Source: Candidatus Harrisonbacteria bacterium (GTDB taxonomy: Bacteria > Patescibacteriota > Minisyncoccia > UBA6257 > UBA11618). Taken from it: a stretch of 64,000 nt of DNA. This document shows, in pieces, positions 35,548 through 46,953 of this stretch (positions are counted from its first letter, which is position 1; the number at the start of each line of letters is the position of its first letter). Both the position numbers and the translations under genes were made by a program. Location of the stretch: contig JAHFLN010000001.1 in assembly GCA_023244835.1 (NCBI GenBank), forward strand, positions 4,912-68,911. Reading direction: 5' to 3'. The notes beneath the pieces were generated by a model. That model was not told the DNA's origin and searched no databases. It saw only the letters and a list, made by a program, of their open reading frames with translations.

Positions 35548-35635
35548 GGAGGGGTCGCATAGCGGCCTAGTGCACCATCTTGGAAAGGTGGCATACCGAA
35601 AGGTATCGAGGGTTCGAATCCCTCCCCCTCCGCCA
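35548..35635 (+). tRNA. tRNA-Ser(GGA)
   Basis: GGAGGGG/CCCCTCC acceptor stem with GCCA; anticodon arm CCATC-TTGGAAA-GGTGG; long variable arm ATACC-GAAA-GGTAT; GGTTCGAATCC. Confidence 0.97.
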
Positions 35636-35656
35636 GATTGGCAACTTTGAACCAAT

Positions 35657-36430
35657 ATGAATACATGGACTAAAAAGAGTATAGAACTGGCGCGTAAACC
35701 GGGATATTTAGATGCCTTGGGCGCTATTTATGTTATGAATATAAATCCTAGTAGACCACTAACGGAAGAAGTTGAGAAAAAAATACGAGAGGCTTTCCAT
35801 AATAGAAAAAATAAAGAGTTAGTTCATCTGTTAATTCAAAACGAAGTCTTTCCGGTCAAGGATTCTTATGTCGGATTTTTAAGACTTAACCCTGCGGCTA
35901 TTGATCAAAATCCGATAACTATCAATAGAATATCAGAAAGGCTTTACTCATTGGGGATTGAAGCACTTCTTAAGGAGGCAACTCGTCCTAAAGAGACAAA
36001 TCGTCAACTCGGACACTCATTCAAAAAATGGTTGCCTCAATTAGGTTATCCCGTACTTAATGTAGAAGAGTTTGCCAATACTCGAGGTGTGGCCATCCTT
36101 GCCGGTGGGGACGCACAACTTGCAAAATACGCTAGAGAGAAGTTGGGCTGTGAATTATCCAAAGGTATTGATTTTGTTTTAAAGAAAGGAAAGAATCATA
36201 TTATTGGTGAAGCTAAATTTCTTACAACTCCTGGAGGAGAGCAAGATCGAGGTTTTGATGACGCATCAAATTTTATTAAAGGAAAATTGCGCCCAAATGT
36301 GAAAAGAATAGCTGTTTTGGATGGCTATATCTGGGTAGAACGAACTGGTGGGCTCCACAATAAGATCGTGATGAACAACCTTGATATTTTTAGTGCTCTA
36401 CTCCTTCCCGAATATATTAAAAAGTTTTAG
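35657..36430 (+). CDS. putative type II restriction endonuclease (Tsp45I-like)
   Basis: PD-(D/E)xK core IDFV...GEAKFLT..GG.Q...F.DA; convergent with the MTase, overlapping stop codons at 36427-36430. Confidence 0.7.
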   Translation: MNTWTKKSIELARKPGYLDALGAIYVMNINPSRPLTEEVEKKIREAFHNRKNKELVHLLIQNEVFPVKDSYVGFLRLNPAAIDQNPITINRISERLYSLGIEALLKEATRPKETNRQLGHSFKKWLPQLGYPVLNVEEFANTRGVAILAGGDAQLAKYAREKLGCELSKGIDFVLKKGKNHIIGEAKFLTTPGGEQDRGFDDASNFIKGKLRPNVKRIAVLDGYIWVERTGGLHNKIVMNNLDIFSALLLPEYIKKF

Positions 36431-38187
36431 GTTGCAGAATAAACCTCAAAAGAAGCTTTTAATTTAGCTCCTTCTTTTTCTATAAGACTAATAGCATTTT
36501 TATTGAGGTCTATTCCTATCCAATTTCTTTTTAGTTCTTCAGCGGCTAGTAGAGTAGTACCCGACCCCGCAAAACAATCCAAAACCAAGTCGTCTTGCGT
36601 TGTAGAGCTCTGAATAATTTGTTTCAATAAGTCTCGATTTTTCTGTGTTGGGTAAAGAGAGCTCTCGAAACCAGGATCTTTAAAGTCCCACACGTCCTGA
36701 AGTTTCTTGCCTCGGTTTTCGTCTGCGTAGATTTTTTTTCGAGGATTCCCTGAACTAGACCACTCAATCAATCCTTCTTTATCTAGGCGTGTTAATTCTT
36801 CAGGGTTATATCTCCAATGCCTTCCTTTCGGTGGGAGCATGCCTTTCCATTCTCTGCCCGTAGGACCATTTCGTGTCTCTCCTTTAGCGTGAAGAGGTGT
36901 GGTGGCATACCTACGCCCTTTTTTGTCAATCTTGGGAAATTGTTTTATGATCTCCTCCTCAGTTAAGGCTATACGATGGTCCGTCCAAGACATTGGGTCA
37001 TGTCCATTTGGTTTTGATTTGGAATAAAAATATATTACATCTTTTATGTTCCCGAAAGCTTTCCTATCGAAATTTTTTGGATTACATTTTATTCTGGTAA
37101 TGTCATTTCTAAAATTTTCCTCTCCGAATACTTCGTCCATTAATACTTTTACATAATGTCCTATTTTCTGATCAATATGGAGGTATATGCTACCTGTTTC
37201 GGAAAGTAATTCTCTAAGAAGGATCAGTCTTTTTCTTAAAAACTCAAGGAAATCTGTGTTTGTAAGTTTGTCGCTATAAAAGTTTTCTTCGTTATAACCA
37301 ACAAAATCTTGCCCTGTACCAAAAGGTGGATCGATATAAATTAATTCGATATTGCCCTTTATATTTTTATTTTCATACAAATTCTTAAGAACACTGAGAT
37401 TGTCGCCTGCAATTAATTTATTTACAGACTTTGATCCATATTTCTTAGTAAGTTTAAGTTGAGCCGCTTTGATTTCAAGAACTTCTTCTTCCTTTATTTT
37501 TCCTCGATAAATCAACTCAGCTCCTCCTTTAGGACGACGTGCATGAGGAATCGTATGAAGAATATTTTCTGCTCTCTCCCTCTCGGAATATCTTTCGTTG
37601 GATTTAATAATATCTATAACTACACCTTGGATAGTTAACCGTTCAGGTTCAATAAAAAGAGGTAGCATTGTTTGGTTCGCAGGCTGTAGCCGTATCCTAT
37701 TTTTCTCCCTAAAAAACTTTTTAAGTGTGGCGGACTCCTGATCAATCAAAGCAACAACTTTTTGACCATTGTGTGCTACCGATTGACTCTGAATCAACAC
37801 AATGTCTCCATCGTTGATATTCTCATCAATCATACTATCGCCATACACACGTAGAGCGTAAACATCACTACTTTTAGGCATTTTCGATTTCGGGATAGCG
37901 ATTGTCTCCTTTTCTTGAATTGCTTCAATTGGCTCGCCTGCAGCAATAGTACCCAGGAGAGGAATGCTTACCAGGGGTTCGCCAGAGGAAATACTTATAG
38001 AACGTGCTTTATTTTCAGATTTATCCAAATATCCACTATCTCGTAGTTTGTTTATATGAAAATGTGCAGTAGAAACAGAGGCAAGTTTAAAATGCCTCTG
38101 TATTTCCTCTAAGGAGGGGGCATACCCTTTCTTTTTGGAAGACTCTTTTACGAAATCGAAGACCTCTTTTTGCTTTTTGGTGAGCAT
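36427..38187 (-). CDS. LexA repressor fused to a beta-class N6-adenine DNA methyltransferase
   Basis: N-terminus MLTKKQKEV..GYAPSLEEI wHTH, IAAG cleavage site, GDSM, TLKK; C-terminus YIDPPF (motif IV) before LDCFAGSGTT (motif I). Confidence 0.9.
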   Translation of the reverse strand: MLTKKQKEVFDFVKESSKKKGYAPSLEEIQRHFKLASVSTAHFHINKLRDSGYLDKSENKARSISISSGEPLVSIPLLGTIAAGEPIEAIQEKETIAIPKSKMPKSSDVYALRVYGDSMIDENINDGDIVLIQSQSVAHNGQKVVALIDQESATLKKFFREKNRIRLQPANQTMLPLFIEPERLTIQGVVIDIIKSNERYSERERAENILHTIPHARRPKGGAELIYRGKIKEEEVLEIKAAQLKLTKKYGSKSVNKLIAGDNLSVLKNLYENKNIKGNIELIYIDPPFGTGQDFVGYNEENFYSDKLTNTDFLEFLRKRLILLRELLSETGSIYLHIDQKIGHYVKVLMDEVFGEENFRNDITRIKCNPKNFDRKAFGNIKDVIYFYSKSKPNGHDPMSWTDHRIALTEEEIIKQFPKIDKKGRRYATTPLHAKGETRNGPTGREWKGMLPPKGRHWRYNPEELTRLDKEGLIEWSSSGNPRKKIYADENRGKKLQDVWDFKDPGFESSLYPTQKNRDLLKQIIQSSTTQDDLVLDCFAGSGTTLLAAEELKRNWIGIDLNKNAISLIEKEGAKLKASFEVYSAT

Positions 38188-38193
38188 ATTGAT

Positions 38194-38222
38194 ATTATAG
38201 AAAATAAATAGAAAGTATACAA
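38194..38222 (-). promoter_or_regulatory. sigma70 promoter of lexA-MTase (leaderless) with a direct-repeat operator candidate
   Basis: TTGTAT-17-TATAAT-6-ATG; ATAGAAA repeated with an 11-bp period within the spacer/-10. Confidence 0.65.
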
Positions 38223-38228
38223 ATCAAG

Positions 38229-38237
38229 TTATCCACA
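38229..38237 (+). promoter_or_regulatory. DnaA-box consensus
   Basis: TTATCCACA, 5 nt before the DUF4238 ATG. Confidence 0.4.
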
Positions 38238-38242
38238 AGGTC

Positions 38243-39238
38243 ATGGCAAAGCATCACATCGTTCAAGACAAATATCTCACTCAATGGAGAAAAAGCGGAA
38301 CAGAAAATCAGCTCAATATTTATGTTATTCATGAAAATCAAATTATAGAAAGAGGACCGGGATGGAAGGGTTTTTGGAGAGATGATTTTAATGTGCTTGA
38401 AGATGACGGTGAAAAGTCCTACCTCCCAGAGGAAGTTACGGTAATTATTGATACAAAGGGTATTGAAGCTGTCAGGAAAATAAATACTACAAGCGAAGAA
38501 TTATTATCAGGTATGGATAGGAGTTGCGTAGCTTTTTATACGGCATTGCAGTACACAAGAACTCCGCGACACAGAGAGGAAACAAACAAATTGATCGAAG
38601 CTACTACCCGACATTTTATGAGAAAAGACCTTCCATCACCAGATAAGGTGCATATGTCCAAAGATAAGATACTCGAGTATAACCCACAGAATAAAATGGA
38701 GGAGGATGCTCTGGATGTGATAAGTAAGATGACGCAAGAGGAAATCAACTCACAGATTTTTAAGGCAATACACGATGATACAGTCAGGATCGGCCTTACA
38801 AAGACAGGCCACTCAAAAGGCATTCTGAAAGTAGATCGTCATGCCGAGAAGATATTTGAAATGCAGTGGCTATTCCTAGTAACTCCTGAGGGTACGTCCT
38901 TCATTACCTCGGATAGCCCTTGTTTTACAATATCCACATCGAAACTGAATGGGCTAATATCGCCTCACTCAACGGTATATTTCCCATTAAGACCAGATAT
39001 ATGTCTTTACATAAAACCGAGCATGAAATCAAAAGCAGAATACTATATGAAGTTAGATAAGGGACAGGTTAGGGATATAAATTCACTGATACTCTCAAAC
39101 AGTACCCAATGTGCAGTTGCCAAGGACAAAATACATTTAGAGAAACTGACCAAGAACTTCGATTACAAAAACCACAGAAAGTCACGCGTTATATCTATTA
39201 GCGAATCGGGGCCATACACAATGTTTACCGCAGAATAG
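38243..39238 (+). CDS. DUF4238 domain protein
   Basis: N-terminal HHIVQDKYL..W and FITSDSP...FPL.P motifs. Confidence 0.75.
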   Translation: MAKHHIVQDKYLTQWRKSGTENQLNIYVIHENQIIERGPGWKGFWRDDFNVLEDDGEKSYLPEEVTVIIDTKGIEAVRKINTTSEELLSGMDRSCVAFYTALQYTRTPRHREETNKLIEATTRHFMRKDLPSPDKVHMSKDKILEYNPQNKMEEDALDVISKMTQEEINSQIFKAIHDDTVRIGLTKTGHSKGILKVDRHAEKIFEMQWLFLVTPEGTSFITSDSPCFTISTSKLNGLISPHSTVYFPLRPDICLYIKPSMKSKAEYYMKLDKGQVRDINSLILSNSTQCAVAKDKIHLEKLTKNFDYKNHRKSRVISISESGPYTMFTAE

Positions 39239-39493
39239 TAAATTAACCTGAGTAGCCTGTATATTTTAGGCTAGACAGAATAATCAACTGCATTTTGCCC
39301 TATATCTGACTTTGGCTTCGGTACTTCAAACCATTCAGGGTGGACTTTGTAGATAACCCTTAGTTTCTGTATACTTTTATCAAGATCCTCGAATTTGAGC
39401 CGTACTTTTGGTTCAAAGTTACGGGCATCGTCCCCGCCTAATGCAAAAGAGATGGCCTTGCGCCATCCCCTTTTGCATTAGATGTGATGGCTT

Positions 39494-39594
39494 GGAGAGG
39501 ATTCGAACCGAAGGTCCCCTATTTTCAAGGAGGCTTACAGCCGACTATGAAAATAGCGGCCTCGACCGAAGGAAGAGGCGAATCCCCCCCGCCC
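39494..39594. repeat. structured inverted-repeat element with tRNA T-arm-like ends
   Basis: GGATTCG/CGAATCC closing stem, CTATTTTCA/TGAAAATAG inner stem, two small hairpins. Confidence 0.55.
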
Positions 39595-39614: not shown

Positions 39615-40079
39615 TTAATCCTTCCCAGACTTCGCGCTTATTCCATCGCGTACGATACCCTCAAGCACTGCCGCCGTACTGGCAGCAATGATAGAGCCGA
39701 AGGCAACGAGAAGTCCTATAGCAACCCCGCCTGCCCGGTCATCGCTCGTGTTCAGCATAATGAATACTTCCCCTACCGCGACGAAGCCAATGATAACAAA
39801 GGCGCACCGCCTAATAGTCCGCATGGCATTTACGACTTGTTGCGAAAACGCCTTACCCTCTCGGATATATCGGAGCGCCGTGAATGCCTGATAGAGCGCC
39901 GTGAAAAACGCGATTGATCCTATATAAGCGAATAGTATGAAAGGATCGGAATACATTTCGAAATTCGTGGCGTTCGCGTTCACGCCCTCGACGCGAGGTT
40001 CCCATACGAGAAACGCAAGCGCGCCAATGCCGATAAGCATGATGACTGCTTGAAGAAATATCGTCGGGCCTTTTTTCAT
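39615..40079 (-). CDS. DUF2975 membrane protein
   Basis: MKKGPTIFLQ.., ALYQAF..LRYI...AFS, DDRAGG. Confidence 0.8.
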   Translation of the reverse strand: MKKGPTIFLQAVIMLIGIGALAFLVWEPRVEGVNANATNFEMYSDPFILFAYIGSIAFFTALYQAFTALRYIREGKAFSQQVVNAMRTIRRCAFVIIGFVAVGEVFIMLNTSDDRAGGVAIGLLVAFGSIIAASTAAVLEGIVRDGISAKSGKD

Positions 40080-40116
40080 ATATAGTTCTTTATGCATACT
40101 ACATTCATCGTAAGAC

Positions 40117-40563
40117 ATGAAGACTACTTTCACCATCGGGGCGTTCGGGATGATATTCGATGCCGAATGGCGCGTGCTTCTCTGCCATAGGACGGACTAC
40201 GACCTATGGAACCTGCCCGGCGGCACTGTCGAGCACGGCGAATCTCCCTGGGATGCCGTGGTGCGCGAAATCAAAGAAGAAACGGGACTGGATGCCATCG
40301 TCTCGCGACTCGCGGGTATCTACAGTAAACCCGACCAGAATGACGTCGTTTTTTCTTTCGTCTGTACGATAACGGGCGGCGTGATAACGCCGAATAACGA
40401 AGCTGATCGTATAGAATGGTTCGCGCCTGCTTCCTTGCCTCCGAATACCTCACCGAAACAAGTCGAGCGTATTATGGATGCCGTTCGGGATCCGAATGCC
40501 ATGCATATGAAAATCCAAACCGGGAAATCCTCGATCGAACTCATCAGGGACGGCCGGCTTTAG
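40117..40563 (+). CDS. NUDIX hydrolase
   Basis: Nudix box PGGTVEHGESPWDAVVREIKEETG. Confidence 0.93.
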   Translation: MKTTFTIGAFGMIFDAEWRVLLCHRTDYDLWNLPGGTVEHGESPWDAVVREIKEETGLDAIVSRLAGIYSKPDQNDVVFSFVCTITGGVITPNNEADRIEWFAPASLPPNTSPKQVERIMDAVRDPNAMHMKIQTGKSSIELIRDGRL

Positions 40564-40642
40564 GACGAACTTGAGCGACAGTCCCCGATTACGCTAGACT
40601 GATACTCGTTTTCCGCATTTCACCATTTCAAAGGAGGCATCC

Positions 40643-40729
40643 GTGAGACGCAGCAGACTTCCCGATCCCACCACTATCTTCGCGATCATCATCGGCATAA
40701 TCCTCGTGATTTTCGCCTGGAACCGGTAA
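40643..40729 (+). CDS. 28-aa single-TM small protein
   Basis: AAGGAGG then GTG; MRRSRLPDPTTIFAIIIGIILVIFAWNR. Confidence 0.5.
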   Translation: MRRSRLPDPTTIFAIIIGIILVIFAWNR

Positions 40730-40784
40730 TGATCGGGAGCAAGCACGCACCCTGATAACCCAAACCACAGAAAGGACAGATGTA

Positions 40785-41402
40785 ATGCCCAACGCATCAG
40801 GCAACCTCTCCGTCCGCGAAGTTCTCGAACAGGCGTTCGCCTTGCTTCTTGAACATTTCAGCGTAACGGCCGTCGACCTGCCTTGCCGCGCGCAGGCGGA
40901 AATAGCCGACGACTCCTTCGTTCCCCATGAGCCCGCATTCGGCTTTATCGGTTACGATCGCGCGGCGCTCGTATGTCTTGTAGACGGCACCCGATGGGCG
41001 CTTAGCAATGGCCGTAAGTGCGGCCAGTATCCGGGCGATGAATACGATTCGGATATTGCCGCGGTCATCCTTACCGGATTTTCCGAAGATGACACGATAG
41101 AGCCCGCGCACCTCGGCTACGCGCTCGCTTCAAACGATCACTTCTTCCACTCCGCGATCGTCGCGTGTCGCGACGGGGGGTTCGGCGTCGCGAACGATTC
41201 GGTATTCCACCAAGCGACGAGCGCGCTCGTCCTGCCCCGCACTCCCGGCTTCGTCGCGACGCCTGCCATTACCGATACGCGGCGAGTCATTGACCCGGGC
41301 ACGATGCGCGTGCGCGTCGCACAGCCGGCGACCTATCGGCCGGACATCGTCCCATTTCTCGCGGATATGATCACCTTGATTATCAAAGGAGAAATCTCCT
41401 GA
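40785..41402 (+). CDS. hypothetical protein
   Basis: AAAGGA SD; terminator at about 41417-41456. Confidence 0.6.
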   Translation: MPNASGNLSVREVLEQAFALLLEHFSVTAVDLPCRAQAEIADDSFVPHEPAFGFIGYDRAALVCLVDGTRWALSNGRKCGQYPGDEYDSDIAAVILTGFSEDDTIEPAHLGYALASNDHFFHSAIVACRDGGFGVANDSVFHQATSALVLPRTPGFVATPAITDTRRVIDPGTMRVRVAQPATYRPDIVPFLADMITLIIKGEIS

Positions 41403-41453
41403 TATCGCGCGAATCAACACCCCCGCTCCGGCCGACCTTCGGCTGGGGCTTTT

Positions 41454-42698
41454 TTACGCTTTTCCCGCAGGCACGCGGCGCAGGAGCGCCGCTCCGAATA
41501 TGATAAACGCGCTGATCGCGACGATCGCCACGCGATACCGGTCGCTGCCGAGTCCCGAAAGCCCAGACACCATAAGCCCCCACACGACCGGCCCCACGAA
41601 TGACGACGCGCGCTCGGCAAGGCCGAAGTACGCGAACGCGAGGTTGTGCTTATCTTTCGGCGCTATATCTCCCATGGCCGAACGCGATACCGTCCATGTC
41701 GCGCCGAACCAGAATCCCATCATCACCGTCGCGAATACGAACCAGGGAAACGACACGAGAAGTCCCACGAGAGGCAAGAGGAAAACCCATCCGCATAAGA
41801 CGACGAAAAGCGTGCGCCTATGCCCGTACCGGTCGGCGATCATACCTGATACCATGCCGCCTATGCCGCACGTCACGAGAATCGCCAAAAGGAGAACGGT
41901 CTTCACCGTATCCGACACGTGCCATACCTGCTCCAGGAATATAGGGAAGTTGTTGGAAACCGTGAGCACCGCATCATTGAAGAGGAAGTACGCTCCCAGA
42001 AATGCCGCGATTCCCGGGCGGAGGAATATATTCTTAGTTTCCGCGACCACTGTCCGTATTGCCTTGCCGAACGGGACCCGCTCCGTTCCCCGCCCAGGCT
42101 CTTCAAACCATATGAGCGTCGGAAGCGACAGGAGAAAGAAAACGACAGTCGCCGGCAGAAGCGTTTCCGCGCGCGGCGACGCATGGAAGACCGTCCACAC
42201 GCCCTTTGAGAACGGGAGCGCGAGGAGGAGCCCGGCGAACTGGCCCGCATAATTCGCCGCGATCCCGAAACCCGATATGCGGCCGCGCCGCTCGGGCGAG
42301 GCGATGTCATTCATAAGCGGCGTATAGAACGTGAACGAGAGGAGATATATATAGAGCGCGAACGCGAAGCATATGAGCGCTCCCCACGCATTTCCCGCGA
42401 CGGCGAAGAGAGCGCACGCGCCATAGAGCGCTGCCGCTGTAGCCGTCGACCAGCGCAATCCCGTAATGCGCCTGAGCGAGCTGTCGAGGAATACGCCGGT
42501 TATAGGCGCCGTGAGAAGCAGAAGAAACGCGGAAAGCGTGAAGGCGAGATTGAAATGAAAATCGGCGATTCCCTTGTCCACGACCGCCCACTGCGCGAAA
42601 TACAGAAAGAACGTTATCGAAACGATCGAATTAGCGAAGTCGTACGCGACCCATAGCGCGACGTTCCTCCGCGTATGCATCGGGAGCGCGGCCATCAT
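41454..42698 (-). CDS. MFS transporter (UMF1/Atg22-like)
   Basis: WVAYDFANS, about 12 TM, ADRYGHRR; start overlaps the htpX stop (ATGA). Confidence 0.88.
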   Translation of the reverse strand: MMAALPMHTRRNVALWVAYDFANSIVSITFFLYFAQWAVVDKGIADFHFNLAFTLSAFLLLLTAPITGVFLDSSLRRITGLRWSTATAAALYGACALFAVAGNAWGALICFAFALYIYLLSFTFYTPLMNDIASPERRGRISGFGIAANYAGQFAGLLLALPFSKGVWTVFHASPRAETLLPATVVFFLLSLPTLIWFEEPGRGTERVPFGKAIRTVVAETKNIFLRPGIAAFLGAYFLFNDAVLTVSNNFPIFLEQVWHVSDTVKTVLLLAILVTCGIGGMVSGMIADRYGHRRTLFVVLCGWVFLLPLVGLLVSFPWFVFATVMMGFWFGATWTVSRSAMGDIAPKDKHNLAFAYFGLAERASSFVGPVVWGLMVSGLSGLGSDRYRVAIVAISAFIIFGAALLRRVPAGKA

Positions 42699-43612
42699 CG
42701 CGTGCCGCGCAACGCGGCGATACGTTCCGCGACCGGCGGATGCGTGAGGAAGAGCTTCGCGAACCACGGAATCCCCTTCGCCGACCCATGGCGCGCATCC
42801 GCCTTGAACGGGCTCTCGAACCACAGGTGCGCCGTGCTCGCGCTCGCGGACTGTACCGCATGCGGGTCCGCCGAGATTTTCTCGAGCGCGCTCGCAAGAC
42901 CTTCCGGATAACGCGTAAGGAGCGCCCCCGAAGCATCAGCCAAGAACTCGCGCTTGCGCGAGATGGCGAGCTGGATCAGGGTCGCCGCAAGGGGCAGGAG
43001 AATCACGCCCGCGATCGCGAATATACCCGCTAAGGCATTGCGCTCGCCGCCGCGATCGTCCCGGCTCCTCATACCACCCCATATGAACGAGCGCGTCATC
43101 ATATCCGCGGCGATCGATATACAACCCACAAGTACCACAACAACGGTCGACACAAGCATGTCCCAATTCCCGATATGCGACAGCTCATGCGCGATCACGC
43201 CTTCGAGCTCGGGCTTGCCGAGCCGCGCAAGCAAGCCCGTGGTCACCGCGACCACCGCATGCTCGGGATTCCTACCCGTCGCGAACGCGTTCGGGGCCGG
43301 ATCATCAACGACATATATCTTCGGCACGGGCAATCCGGCCGCGATCGAAAGATTTTCGACGATGGCGTAGAGGCCCGGCGCATCACGACGCCCGATAGGC
43401 CTCGCATTCGCCATCCTCAAAACCAGCTTGTCCGAATACCAATAGCTCCCGACACTCATCAGAACGCTTAGTATGACCGCGATAACGAGGATCGCGGGAT
43501 TTTCAAAGTAGACTCCTAATGCATAGCCGAATCCGATAATGACGGCGAAAAAGACCGTGAGCAGAAACCATGTCTTGCGGATATTCGCATCCCTATGCCG
43601 ATATATGTCCAT
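42695..43612 (-). CDS. htpX: zinc metalloprotease HtpX (M48)
   Basis: PNAFATG, HELSH, SRKREFLAD, THPP. Confidence 0.95.
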   Translation of the reverse strand: MDIYRHRDANIRKTWFLLTVFFAVIIGFGYALGVYFENPAILVIAVILSVLMSVGSYWYSDKLVLRMANARPIGRRDAPGLYAIVENLSIAAGLPVPKIYVVDDPAPNAFATGRNPEHAVVAVTTGLLARLGKPELEGVIAHELSHIGNWDMLVSTVVVVLVGCISIAADMMTRSFIWGGMRSRDDRGGERNALAGIFAIAGVILLPLAATLIQLAISRKREFLADASGALLTRYPEGLASALEKISADPHAVQSASASTAHLWFESPFKADARHGSAKGIPWFAKLFLTHPPVAERIAALRGTR

Positions 43613-45966: not shown

Positions 45967-46260
45967 TTACGACTCAAGGATCGCGAGGATATCCGCCTCG
46001 TCGGCAACCAAATACTTCTTGCCGTCAAGCTCGACCTCGTCCGGCCCGTATTTCTTGAAAAGCACGAGGTCTCCCACCTTCACGGACATCGGATTCAGCT
46101 CCCCTCGGTCATTCCGCTTGCCCGCGCCGACCGCGAGCACGCGCCCCTTTACCGGCCGTTCTTTTTCCGCTGTATCCGGCAGGACGATGCCTGATTTCGT
46201 CATGCGGTCTTCTTCCATGGCATCGAGAAACACGCGATCAGCAATGGGTTTTATGGTCAT
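45967..46260 (-). CDS. groS: co-chaperonin GroES
   Basis: MTIKPIADRV, TKSGIVLPD, VKVGD, DILAI; promoter-like TTGACC-16-TATACT just upstream. Confidence 0.96.
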   Translation of the reverse strand: MTIKPIADRVFLDAMEEDRMTKSGIVLPDTAEKERPVKGRVLAVGAGKRNDRGELNPMSVKVGDLVLFKKYGPDEVELDGKKYLVADEADILAILES

Positions 46261-46953
46261 CATAGTACCTAGGAGTATATCCTGTTTTTTCCCATGGTCA
46301 AGAGCGCGAACGCTTTCTCCCGGCGCTTTTTTCGGACGGAAGCACAGCTCGACGCGGCTTTCCGAAACGCTGATGCGCGATTCGCTTGACGCGCCGAATC
46401 GAATGCTCTGCGCCGCGATCCGGCGCTCCTGAATACGCCTCATGAGCGCTTCGCCCCAGGCGCCGAATGCGAAATCGAAGAGCGTCTCCGCGCACGCGAC
46501 AAGCGGGATCTTCTCCTTCCTATAGCGATATCTCACATTCGCGAATATCCCCTCGCGCATCGCCCCTGATGCCGTAAGGAATTCCCCAATCGCCTCCCGC
46601 GTTCCCACGACGGGCACGAGCGACGCGGCGAGGGCCCGTGCATACGCGTCCTCCGGCGCGTCGAGGCGGGCATCCGTCGCTATAAAATGATTCAGGCAAA
46701 AGCCTCTGCCGCGCGCGGCGATATGCGTACGGAGTCCGAGCAAACGGAAAATCCCCAAACAGAAAAAACGCGCCGTATACATACGGCCCGGCCGCGTTCC
46801 GACGATCACATCCCAGTCGGAATTCCTATGGGCATCGCCTGTCGCGAGCGATCCCGACACGAGCACTAAGTCGACGAAGGGGATCCACTCGAAGATCCAG
46901 ACCTTCCCGAGCAGGCCGTGCCATGCGTGGTCGAAAATTCCTTTTTGGTCCAT
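46261..46953 (-). CDS. nucleotidyltransferase-like protein (Pol-beta superfamily), in frame with groS
   Basis: GSLATG..SDWDV motif; no stop codon before groS. Confidence 0.65.

Follow-up and report, generated by a model that had tools for sequence, protein, structure and literature searches.

In an ultra-small groundwater bacterium of the lineage Candidatus Harrisonbacteria, one gene joins a LexA repressor to a DNA methyltransferase beside a restriction endonuclease gene. The question raised by this locus, which lies in the window of 64,000 nucleotides analysed here, is whether the fusion couples restriction-modification (R-M) to DNA damage. Type II systems avoid killing the host after entry or during repair by means of C proteins, autorepression through helix-turn-helix (HTH) domains, promoter methylation or antisense RNA. 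If true, a RecA sensor built into a methylase would extend this control by a damage-feedback mode. No description of a LexA-methylase fusion was found in a literature search, by which Sanchez-Osuna 2017 on the LexA of Patescibacteria was not covered, and the word LexA is absent from a 2025 review of type II R-M control. Patescibacteria are mostly uncultured and, according to PMC4742961, rich in restriction systems; the fusion offers a handle on gene regulation in them.

The fusion gene and its island

The features of the locus are as follows.
35548-35635, + strand: tRNA-Ser(GGA), which anchors the island on the left
35657-36430, + strand: Tsp45I-family type II restriction endonuclease, 257 aa (PF06300, E 1e-68; PADLOC REase_II, E 1e-50)
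36427-38187, − strand: LexA-methyltransferase fusion, 586 aa, one ORF
36427-37518, − strand: beta-class amino-methyltransferase, aa 224-586 (PF01555 N6_N4_Mtase at 280-571, E 4e-51)
37519-37602, − strand: linker, aa 196-223
37615-37962, − strand: Peptidase_S24 domain, aa 76-191 (PF00717, E 3e-28)
37936-37941, − strand: predicted Ala83-Gly84 scissile bond, aligned with A84-G85 of E. coli LexA
38002-38184, − strand: LexA winged-helix (wHTH) DNA-binding domain, aa 2-62 (PF01726 LexA_DNA_bind, E 4e-17)
38194-38222, − strand: predicted promoter TTGTAT-17-TATAAT of leaderless type, from sequence and alignment with relatives
38198-38213, − strand: predicted LexA operator, direct repeat TTCTA-N6-TTCTA with an 11-bp period, overlapping the -10 box
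38229-38237, − strand: TGTGGATAA element, DnaA-box-like, marking the upstream limit of the block that is swapped (see below)
38243-39238, + strand: DUF4238 gene, 331 aa, in a variable divergent slot (PF14022, E 5e-27)

The preliminary description had read a complete LexA and a beta-class methyltransferase in one ORF, convergent with an endonuclease gene, and this reading was borne out by the Pfam matches, by a TIGR00498 lexA score of 184 bits in the profile search, where the cut-off is 111, and by the 4-nt overlap of the two convergent genes. The methylase part matches PADLOC MTase_II (E 5e-148), its fold matches are Mod/CcrM/RsrI-type enzymes, and DPPF (286-289) stands ahead of FAGSG (539-543), which is the beta order. 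Continuity of the junction, put up for checking earlier, was confirmed in assembled contigs rather than raw reads: a contig from another study (run X5) covers 37474-37766 with two substitutions and no gap.

The fusion and the endonuclease gene lie on a low-GC island behind the tRNA-Ser gene; in a genome of the same genus, the island is absent and htpX-lemA-groEL-like genes come next after this tRNA. The endonuclease ATG stands 21 nt after the tRNA with no C gene between, the site scan listed no terminator-like site in the interval, and tRNA-Ser likely supplies the endonuclease transcript. By sequence the endonuclease is intact and would form with the fusion a Tsp45I-like type II pair, and a Tsp45I-family endonuclease is paired with the fusion in three relatives as well (L003, L004 and L005). 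GTSAC, the Tsp45I target, occurs in the host genome at an observed/expected ratio of 0.99, an absence of avoidance that neither supports nor excludes activity.

On the divergent side, relatives often carry defence-like genes, and one DUF4238 protein, from E. coli, gives protection from T7 (PMC9122126). A reverse promoter pattern, set up with the data already in view, was found in 37 of 49 long-leader loci and in none of 22 short-leader ones. Co-regulation of the DUF4238 gene in the present copy was rejected, this being a short-leader locus without the pattern. The contigs of runs X5 and X6 do not reach over the DUF4238 gene.

Predicted operator, cleavage site and RecA pocket

The predicted -10 box lies 6 nt ahead of the ATG, while the -35 box is weak and falls below the listing level of a consensus promoter scan that returned 9 sites against 11 expected and is therefore uninformative. 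Among 75 upstream regions, 71 carry the repeat TTC(T/G)A-N6-TTCTA over the promoter (one more has it inverted and three are without it), against a mean of 0.23 and a maximum of 2 in shuffles. By this conservation, a predicted operator of the fused LexA sits in its own promoter, over the -10 box, which supports the autorepression proposed earlier; the full LexA at the methylase N-terminus likely represses its own promoter through this direct repeat. The TGTGGATAA element, exact in 46 of the 75 regions, was also considered as operator and ruled out, being common elsewhere in the host genome and often placed right before promoter-like boxes.

Upstream of stand-alone Patescibacteria lexA genes, a related repeat of TTCG-N7-TTCG type occurs in 11 of 30 cases, placed within the promoter spacer wherever its position was read, and none of the 30 has the form TTC(T/G)A; by sequence, the predicted fusion operator is a variant of this stand-alone box. 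Sanchez-Osuna 2017 reportedly gives a direct-repeat motif for Patescibacteria LexA. The recognition helix of the fused LexA reads SVSTAHFH, with S37, V38, S39 and T40 invariant in 75/75 loci, and fusions with different recognition helices have TTCGG or ATCGG repeats. Within the clade, the only covariation of helix and operator is A36 to S with TTCGA (9/11 versus 2/59), which is confounded by kinship.

The host possesses a separate, distant lexA on another contig (C28) and an intact RecA with GMMFGNP in loop L2. When the host genome was scanned with an operator matrix, the best score was 34.6 and the next 15.6, so the box is unique, and it was not seen before host recA or lexA. A role of the fusion as the SOS master repressor of the host was thereby ruled out. 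In this genome the fused LexA is an additional LexA, borne on the island, and its predicted operator is private.

Alignment with E. coli LexA places A83-G84, S118 and K156 of the fusion on A84-G85, S119 and K156, so that the intact cleavage site and catalytic dyad noticed earlier hold. These residues are kept in 75/75 loci and 56/56 proteins; in an even sample of the phylum, Ser and Lys are kept in 13/13 fusions and Ala-Gly in 12/13, and one fusion (L127) has Ala-Ser at the site. The LexA residues that form the pocket for RecA-F203 (bioRxiv 2023.10.30.564768) were mapped through the same alignment onto L78, I81, Y110, L112, V145 and A153 in the S24 domain. The predicted RecA-docking pocket is nearly invariant among the 75 loci (L78 in 74, I81, Y/F110, L112 and V145 in 75 each, A153 in 71). 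For E152 of the E. coli protein, the aligned residue of the fusion is E151 or S152, and E is found at 152 in 68/75. RecA-pocket residues of LexA are also core residues. The 75 loci were selected for their resemblance to the query sequence and share descent, so these counts overstate independence.

Median dN/dS over 32 pairs was 0.038 for S24 and 0.07 for the wHTH, a stronger constraint on S24; since S24 doubles as the dimer domain, such purifying selection is by itself no proof of cleavage. The AlphaFold model, with pLDDT below 50 at 147-187 in S24, is too weak for active-site geometry or domain packing. The fusion is predicted to cut itself at Ala83-Gly84 on RecA-ssDNA filaments. Such a cut would strip the wHTH only, and the methylase would remain joined to the S24 domain. 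The earlier claim that cleavage frees the methylase from its DNA-binding domain needs correction in that S24 would stay on the enzyme.

A promoter-lexA block on many methylases

The search across genomes suggested in the preliminary description returned the full architecture, with the same methylase family, in 55 other 90% clusters (aligned). That description missed a larger fact, namely the exchange of the promoter-lexA block between methylases of many families. The same LexA clade stands on 15 methylase clusters at 75 loci, and LexA parts that are 95-98% identical carry methylases only 29-43% identical, which marks promoter plus lexA as a swappable block. In 7 of 8 close pairs, the shared DNA starts at -50 to -61. 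The fused LexA is grafted on beta, D12 and C5 methylases, which are unrelated in fold and class, and the LexA parts of the fusions range as low as 54% identity to the present copy. In quick trees of the LexA parts, the fused LexAs make up one side of a branch with SH-aLRT of 100 (75 rows) and 99 (29 rows, including the C5 and D12-class fusions). Of 300 Patescibacteria genomes sampled, at least 13 have a LexA-methylase fusion; none of 35 plasmid records covers 80% of the fusion protein, and viral contigs gave two loci, one of them a LexA fusion.

The gene downstream of the fusion is convergent in 62/68 loci and matches PADLOC REase_II in 42/68, and the conserved block flags unannotated endonuclease and defence candidates. 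A C-like HTH_3 gene stands directly ahead of the endonuclease in 37 of the 62 convergent relatives and is missing from the present copy. LexA is therefore not an alternative to C proteins, as had been supposed, since those 37 carry both. Of the damage-responsive R-M system proposed at the outset, comparison supports autorepression, the kept cleavage and RecA-contact residues and the host RecA, and the contrast with C proteins falls. The analysis yielded no support for activation of the enzyme by cleavage or for phage as a trigger.

Proposed mechanism, alternatives and known systems

We consider it probable that the fusion is a self-repressing type II methylase of SsoII-like design made cleavable by RecA, in which damage, including self-restriction, raises the methylase. 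On entry into a new host, the unrepressed promoter would give a first burst of methylase, and the dimer would then shut the promoter, as in M.SsoII and M.Ecl18kI. Wherever sites become under-methylated through entry, repair synthesis or dilution, the endonuclease would cut the chromosome and RecA filaments would form, on which free fusion would be cleaved and lose its wHTH. The promoter would open, and the remaining S24-methylase fragment of 503 aa likely stays active. Transcription from the open promoter would meet the endonuclease gene, which it overlaps, head-on and may damp it. The predicted outcome is a feedback loop against self-restriction that is independent of the target sequence, which would explain the reuse of one block on many methylases. 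The wider proposal, in our judgement a little short of evenly balanced, is that Patescibacteria possess a portable promoter-operator-lexA block of ~640 bp, graftable on any DNA methylase, which would wire R-M to RecA, sense self-inflicted breaks and raise protection (a type II restriction alleviation), and whose long-leader copies would also unlock a divergent defence gene via the overlapping reverse promoter.

The fusion could instead be a plain self-repressing methylase that borrowed LexA as a DNA-binding and dimer module, RecA cleavage being slow, blocked by the methylase or irrelevant. The same methylase family is found elsewhere with an HTH_17 domain or without any regulator, the L127 site is altered, and in E. 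coli LexA an N-terminal MBP blocked RecA, a documented steric blockage from the N-terminal side which indicates that adjoining bulk can hinder RecA. N-terminal HTH autorepression is moreover a known design (PMC3874152, section 17). We nevertheless regard this reading as unlikely, as the cleavage residues (Ala-Gly, Ser, Lys) and the RecA pocket persist down to 54% LexA identity while other positions drift, and selection constrains S24 more tightly than it does the wHTH. A passive or false fusion, through assembly error or through a lost stop codon between a host SOS repressor and the adjacent gene, is largely refuted and hardly credible: the junction recurs in contigs of two studies, the architecture in 55 further clusters, each of the nine further matches from the phylum at E 1e-55 is a long ORF, and the host keeps its own lexA. 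Its one support is a TTG at codon 225, after a purine-rich run, as a possible internal start, from which a LexA-free methylase might also be made. Stand-alone methylase relatives start mostly near the equivalent of aa 223; the TTG is present here and in L003 and is missing at that codon in L005, L154 and L155.

Two further readings accept cleavage and differ in its consequence. In a kill switch, the fragment would be destroyed, protection would fall and the endonuclease would kill the damaged or infected cell. In E. coli, ClpXP and Lon break down LexA fragments, the host has ClpP, by which the S24-methylase fragment could be degraded, and defence-like genes are frequent in the divergent slot. 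Yet the same cut would also derepress the promoter and renew the enzyme, loss of existing methylation would take rounds of replication, and neither ClpX over the cut-off nor a Lon domain was found in the 97% complete host genome, which makes this distinctly unlikely. Activation by cleavage, as of UmuD to UmuD', would mean an intact protein that is a weak methylase, either held at operator or DNA or kept down by its wHTH, and a cut form that is the active one. The predicted cut would take the wHTH off the enzyme, and such activation is compatible with the RecA-cleavable self-repressor and could act together with it. We find it highly doubtful, as a specific inhibitory contact is hard to reconcile with one LexA serving methylases of unrelated fold and class, an enzyme that needs damage to become active could give no protection on entry, and a single operator per genome cannot hold much enzyme.

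Among known systems, the RecA-cleavable self-repressor comes close to M.SsoII, M.Ecl18kI, M.EcoRII and ScrFI, described in section 17 of PMC3874152 as self-repressing R-M methylases with an N-terminal HTH. The fusion likewise has its regulator on the methylase N-terminus and a predicted operator overlapping the methylase promoter, and a delay-and-balance role is plausible. Those enzymes are C5-cytosine methylases with a short HTH and no protease, whereas the fusion is a beta-class amino-methylase with LexA wHTH and S24; its block is swapped among methylase families, the genes are convergent and many relatives have a C protein. With a whole LexA including the S24 autoprotease, the regulator is predicted to be RecA-inducible, unlike the SsoII-type HTH.

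With LexA/SOS repressors (PMC8565304), including Patescibacteria LexA, the fusion shares wHTH plus S24, Ala-Gly, Ser/Lys and the RecA pocket, and also a predicted autoregulatory direct repeat of 11-bp period in its promoter. It differs from stand-alone LexA by a C-terminal enzyme of 390 aa, its own clade, a diverged helix and a TTCTA rather than TTCGG box, and the lack of this box before host recA or lexA speaks for no host regulon. As in C-protein systems (PvuII, Esp1396I, Csp231I), there is a type II pair, with a C-like gene in the relatives counted above; unlike in them, the present copy has no C gene, its endonuclease follows a tRNA and its methylase is under its own LexA.

CapH/CapP are damage-responsive regulators of defence islands. 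In type I restriction alleviation, ClpXP acts on EcoKI and destroys the nuclease subunit (PMC12707154), and the WYL protein BrxR is a regulator of damage-responsive type for defence islands (PMC9122601). In common with these, the fusion would link DNA damage or nucleic-acid signals to the level of a defence system. Unlike in type I alleviation, the predicted output here is more methylase, by way of a RecA sensor inside the enzyme.

The fusion gene and its setting

Profile search placed the fusion above the TIGR00498 lexA cut-off, and domain search resolved its parts, listed here with the predicted operator.

36427-38187, - strand: ORF of the LexA-methyltransferase fusion, 586 aa
Fusion aa 2-62: LexA_DNA_bind
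Fusion aa 76-191: Peptidase_S24
Fusion aa 280-571: N6_N4_Mtase
38198-38213: direct repeat (predicted operator), overlapping a TATAAT whose end is 6 nt before the ATG

Alignment with the LexA of E. coli puts the scissile bond at A83-G84 and the catalytic dyad at S118/K156. The methylase motifs run in the beta order, DPPF and then FAGSG. Pfam domains, TIGR00498 and motif order thus agree with the preliminary description, which had read this single ORF as a complete LexA plus a beta-class amino-methyltransferase. The convergent endonuclease gene that it reported was likewise recovered, as a Tsp45I-family member (domain search) with a 4-nt overlap with the fusion. The predicted fold of the fusion matched Mod/CcrM/RsrI-type enzymes and LexA structures, the model being weak in S24. 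A stop or frameshift between the domains had been named as a refuting finding; at the junction, contigs of two sequencing runs from one study, one of which may be the source of this DNA, showed zero differences from the window, and a contig from a separate study crosses it (37474-37766) with 2 substitutions and no gaps, all evidence here being contigs. Among the in-gene differences translated from the rows listed (46 further rows stand in the table), 17 of 21 were synonymous. The LexA-methylase junction is real.

The cassette has a GC content of 37-38% against 55% for the host genome, and starts 21 nt behind tRNA-Ser. It is an accessory island, since it was matched in none of the four same-genus genomes searched and in one of these, G304, the same tRNA precedes htpX-lemA-groEL-like genes. 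A perfect 13-bp inverted pair (35643-35655 and 39408-39420) lies either side of the low-GC island and is possibly a boundary mark, or chance. Between island and htpX (39615-42824) stand DUF2975, NUDIX, a gene that resembles transporters and a 205-aa ORF of unknown kind; these are missing there in G304 and form part of a wider variable region behind tRNA-Ser. An element of ~90 bp (39499-39590), beginning with a reversed tRNA T-arm-like motif and without an Rfam match, has 13 more matches across 7 other host contigs, three of them in tandem on contig C18 with a 100-bp period, and also occurs in same-genus genomes. Elsewhere in the window (45967-46953, - strand), a frame that we take to be nucleotidyltransferase-like continues in frame into presumably groES-like sequence; this 328-aa ORF probably represents two genes that no stop codon separates.

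The host recA is intact, and a stand-alone lexA lies on another contig, C28 (L002:1447-2178). Its product is highly divergent, being the longest branch of the LexA tree, and neither repeat type discussed below was present upstream of it.

Relatives, conserved residues and operator

Going by record titles, relatives of the fusion are mostly Patescibacteria. The proposed search for the architecture gave, among proteins, at least 55 more clusters in which the complete set of domains includes the same methylase family. In an even sample of the phylum (300 genomes), 13 of 14 long LexA frames fetched were fusions. The latter figure is a lower bound because 134 of 284 matches lie outside those listed, and its denominators count one unpublished genome (G154). 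Methylases of these sampled fusions were of beta-type, D12-class and C5. With fusion residues 1-200 as query, 4271 proteins of 322-1026 aa were obtained; among the 120 listed, all carry both LexA domains and 119 carry PF01555. LexA comes first in 74 of 80 genome loci, and the methylase parts of these 74 and the window form 15 clusters at 50% identity. In two quick trees, a single branch (SH-aLRT 100 and 99) divides the fused LexAs from the stand-alone LexAs of Patescibacteria; query bias is reduced in the second, as it takes in fusions found by a general profile. L129:2190-4452 looks like a two-methylase system: another amino-methylase comes after the LexA fusion, and a TIR gene is divergent.

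A83, G84, S118 and K156 are kept in all 75 LexA-first loci, and in the phylum sample Ala-Gly was found in 12 of 13 fusions and Ser and Lys in all 13. In E. coli LexA, six residues make a pocket for RecA F203 (bioRxiv 10.1101/2023.10.30.564768, partial text). Their equivalents mapped through the E. coli alignment (L78, I81, Y110, L112, V145 and A153) are near-invariant across loci, and median dN/dS over 32 pairs is 0.038 for S24 and 0.07 for wHTH. Judged by its sequence, the fused LexA looks functional. Against this, S24 doubles as the dimer domain, the compared rows are kin, and bulk fused to LexA is able to block RecA (same preprint). A LexA-C5 methylase fusion (L127:2313-3887) with Ala-Ser instead of Ala-Gly and a divergent vsr gene alongside is a possible natural non-cleavable variant.

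Four features recur in the upstream regions: the TGTGGATAA element, a box resembling -35, a direct repeat of the form TTC(T/G)A-N6-TTCTA, and a -10 box. The repeat occurs in 71 of 75 loci against 0.23 expected, being inverted in L005 and missing from L019, L062 and the truncated L041; 22 of the 71 are leaderless, as in the window. In the host genome it is unique and was seen before neither recA nor lexA. Among 30 stand-alone lexA genes of the phylum, a TTC(T/G)-N7-TTC(T/G) repeat precedes 11, where it sits in the promoter spacer and reads TTCG...TTCG; the TTC(T/G)A form precedes none of the 30. Where a fusion's recognition helix is of another type, its repeats are TTCGG or ATCGG. Since repeat form varies with LexA type, TTC(T/G)A-N6-TTCTA is best read as the predicted operator of the fused LexA. 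Patescibacteria LexA is reportedly a direct-repeat binder (Sanchez-Osuna, 2017). In L005:5880-6003, on a 179-kb contig titled Omnitrophica, and in L155, the inverted operator is positioned downstream of a different promoter. The DnaA-box-like TGTGGATAA occurs 20 times on many host contigs, often ~10 nt ahead of promoter-like boxes; these bacteria may use it widely as a promoter element.

Eight pairs of loci combine 95-98% identity between their LexA parts with only 29-43% between their methylases. In 7 of the 8, the common DNA begins between -50 and -61, at the TGTGGATAA element; it ends at codon 196-260. Only 40 of 75 loci share the methylase cluster of their nearest LexA neighbour. Compared with the window, eight LexA parts are 73-77% identical while their methylases reach only ~30-39% over short stretches, and one relative's protein (P0038) is 70% identical in methylase and 55% in LexA. 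By these sequence comparisons, promoter plus lexA is a swappable, portable control block.

Neighbouring genes

Of 68 loci with a downstream ORF (six others have none), 62 have a convergent neighbour there, and in 42 the neighbour matches PADLOC REase_II. Families named among 40 neighbours scanned included Tsp45I, BglII, TaqI, HindIII, MamI, MutH-like, His-Me and HNH. A C-like HTH_3 gene immediately precedes the endonuclease in 37 of 62 convergent loci, counted from 44 candidate ORFs scanned, with several loci ending too early to judge. LexA control of the methylase therefore supplements C control and does not replace it; the preliminary description had set it against C proteins as the usual regulators, a contrast that fails where relatives have both. 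A same-strand tRNA lies within 1 kb upstream of the endonuclease in 20 of 62 loci, and within 240 nt in nine loci without a C match, which is the window's arrangement. The endonuclease thus appears to be under separate control. Convergent ORFs at the endonuclease position without a PADLOC match and, where scanned, without a Pfam match are candidates for undescribed restriction enzymes (L024, L029, L036, L039, L040, L042, L045, L048, L053, L064, L071, L073; L035, L037, L038, L057, L060, L076; L025, L026, L034; L074).

The gene upstream of the fusion is divergent in 51 of 63 loci and highly variable in content. Among 46 scanned, 18 belong to families that we take from general knowledge to be tied to defence (AbiU2, TIR, DUF4145, AlbA_2, SMODS, trypsin-like, DUF4238, DUF3644, DUF4209, patatin, GIY-YIG), five are housekeeping-like, and the others are of other families or without match. 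A DUF4238 protein guards E. coli against T7 (PMC9122126, partial text). A reverse promoter pattern across the operator, picked after viewing the data, was found in 37 of 49 long-leader loci and 0 of 22 short-leader loci; shared LexA control of the divergent gene is therefore plausible in relatives and unsupported in the window's short-leader copy.

Proposed control and its alternatives

By analogy with M.SsoII/M.Ecl18kI, the fusion would probably repress itself and be rendered RecA-inducible. Cleavage would leave a 503-aa S24-methylase and open the methylase promoter, from which transcription could run into the overlapping endonuclease gene. Because the endonuclease itself breaks DNA when methylation lags, the loop would close blind to target sequence.

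A plain, non-inducible repressor is unlikely. Quite unlikely is a kill switch by degradation, for which ClpP is present in the host but ClpX and Lon were not found there. We give still less weight to cleavage activating the enzyme, and an artefact is highly improbable with the junction seen in contigs of two studies. The RecA-inducible self-repressor stays the preferred reading.

LexA-methylase fusions are real, widespread and apparently undescribed. Database names read only 'LexA' or 'DNA methyltransferase', and literature searches listed no paper on such fusions, which the 2017 Patescibacteria LexA paper could mention. 'LexA' was missing from the main text, as available in part, of a 2025 R-M review (PMC12707154) and a 2026 CPR methyltransferase preprint (10.64898/2026.07.13.738296); further background came from partial texts of PMC8565304, PMC4742961 and PMC9122601. 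M.SsoII and M.Ecl18kI are self-repressing methylases (PMC3874152, partial text). The fusion would resemble them in self-repression and differ in its predicted RecA inducibility, and may thus be viewed as a variant of self-repressing R-M methylases whose new part is a putatively RecA-cleavable, portable control block.
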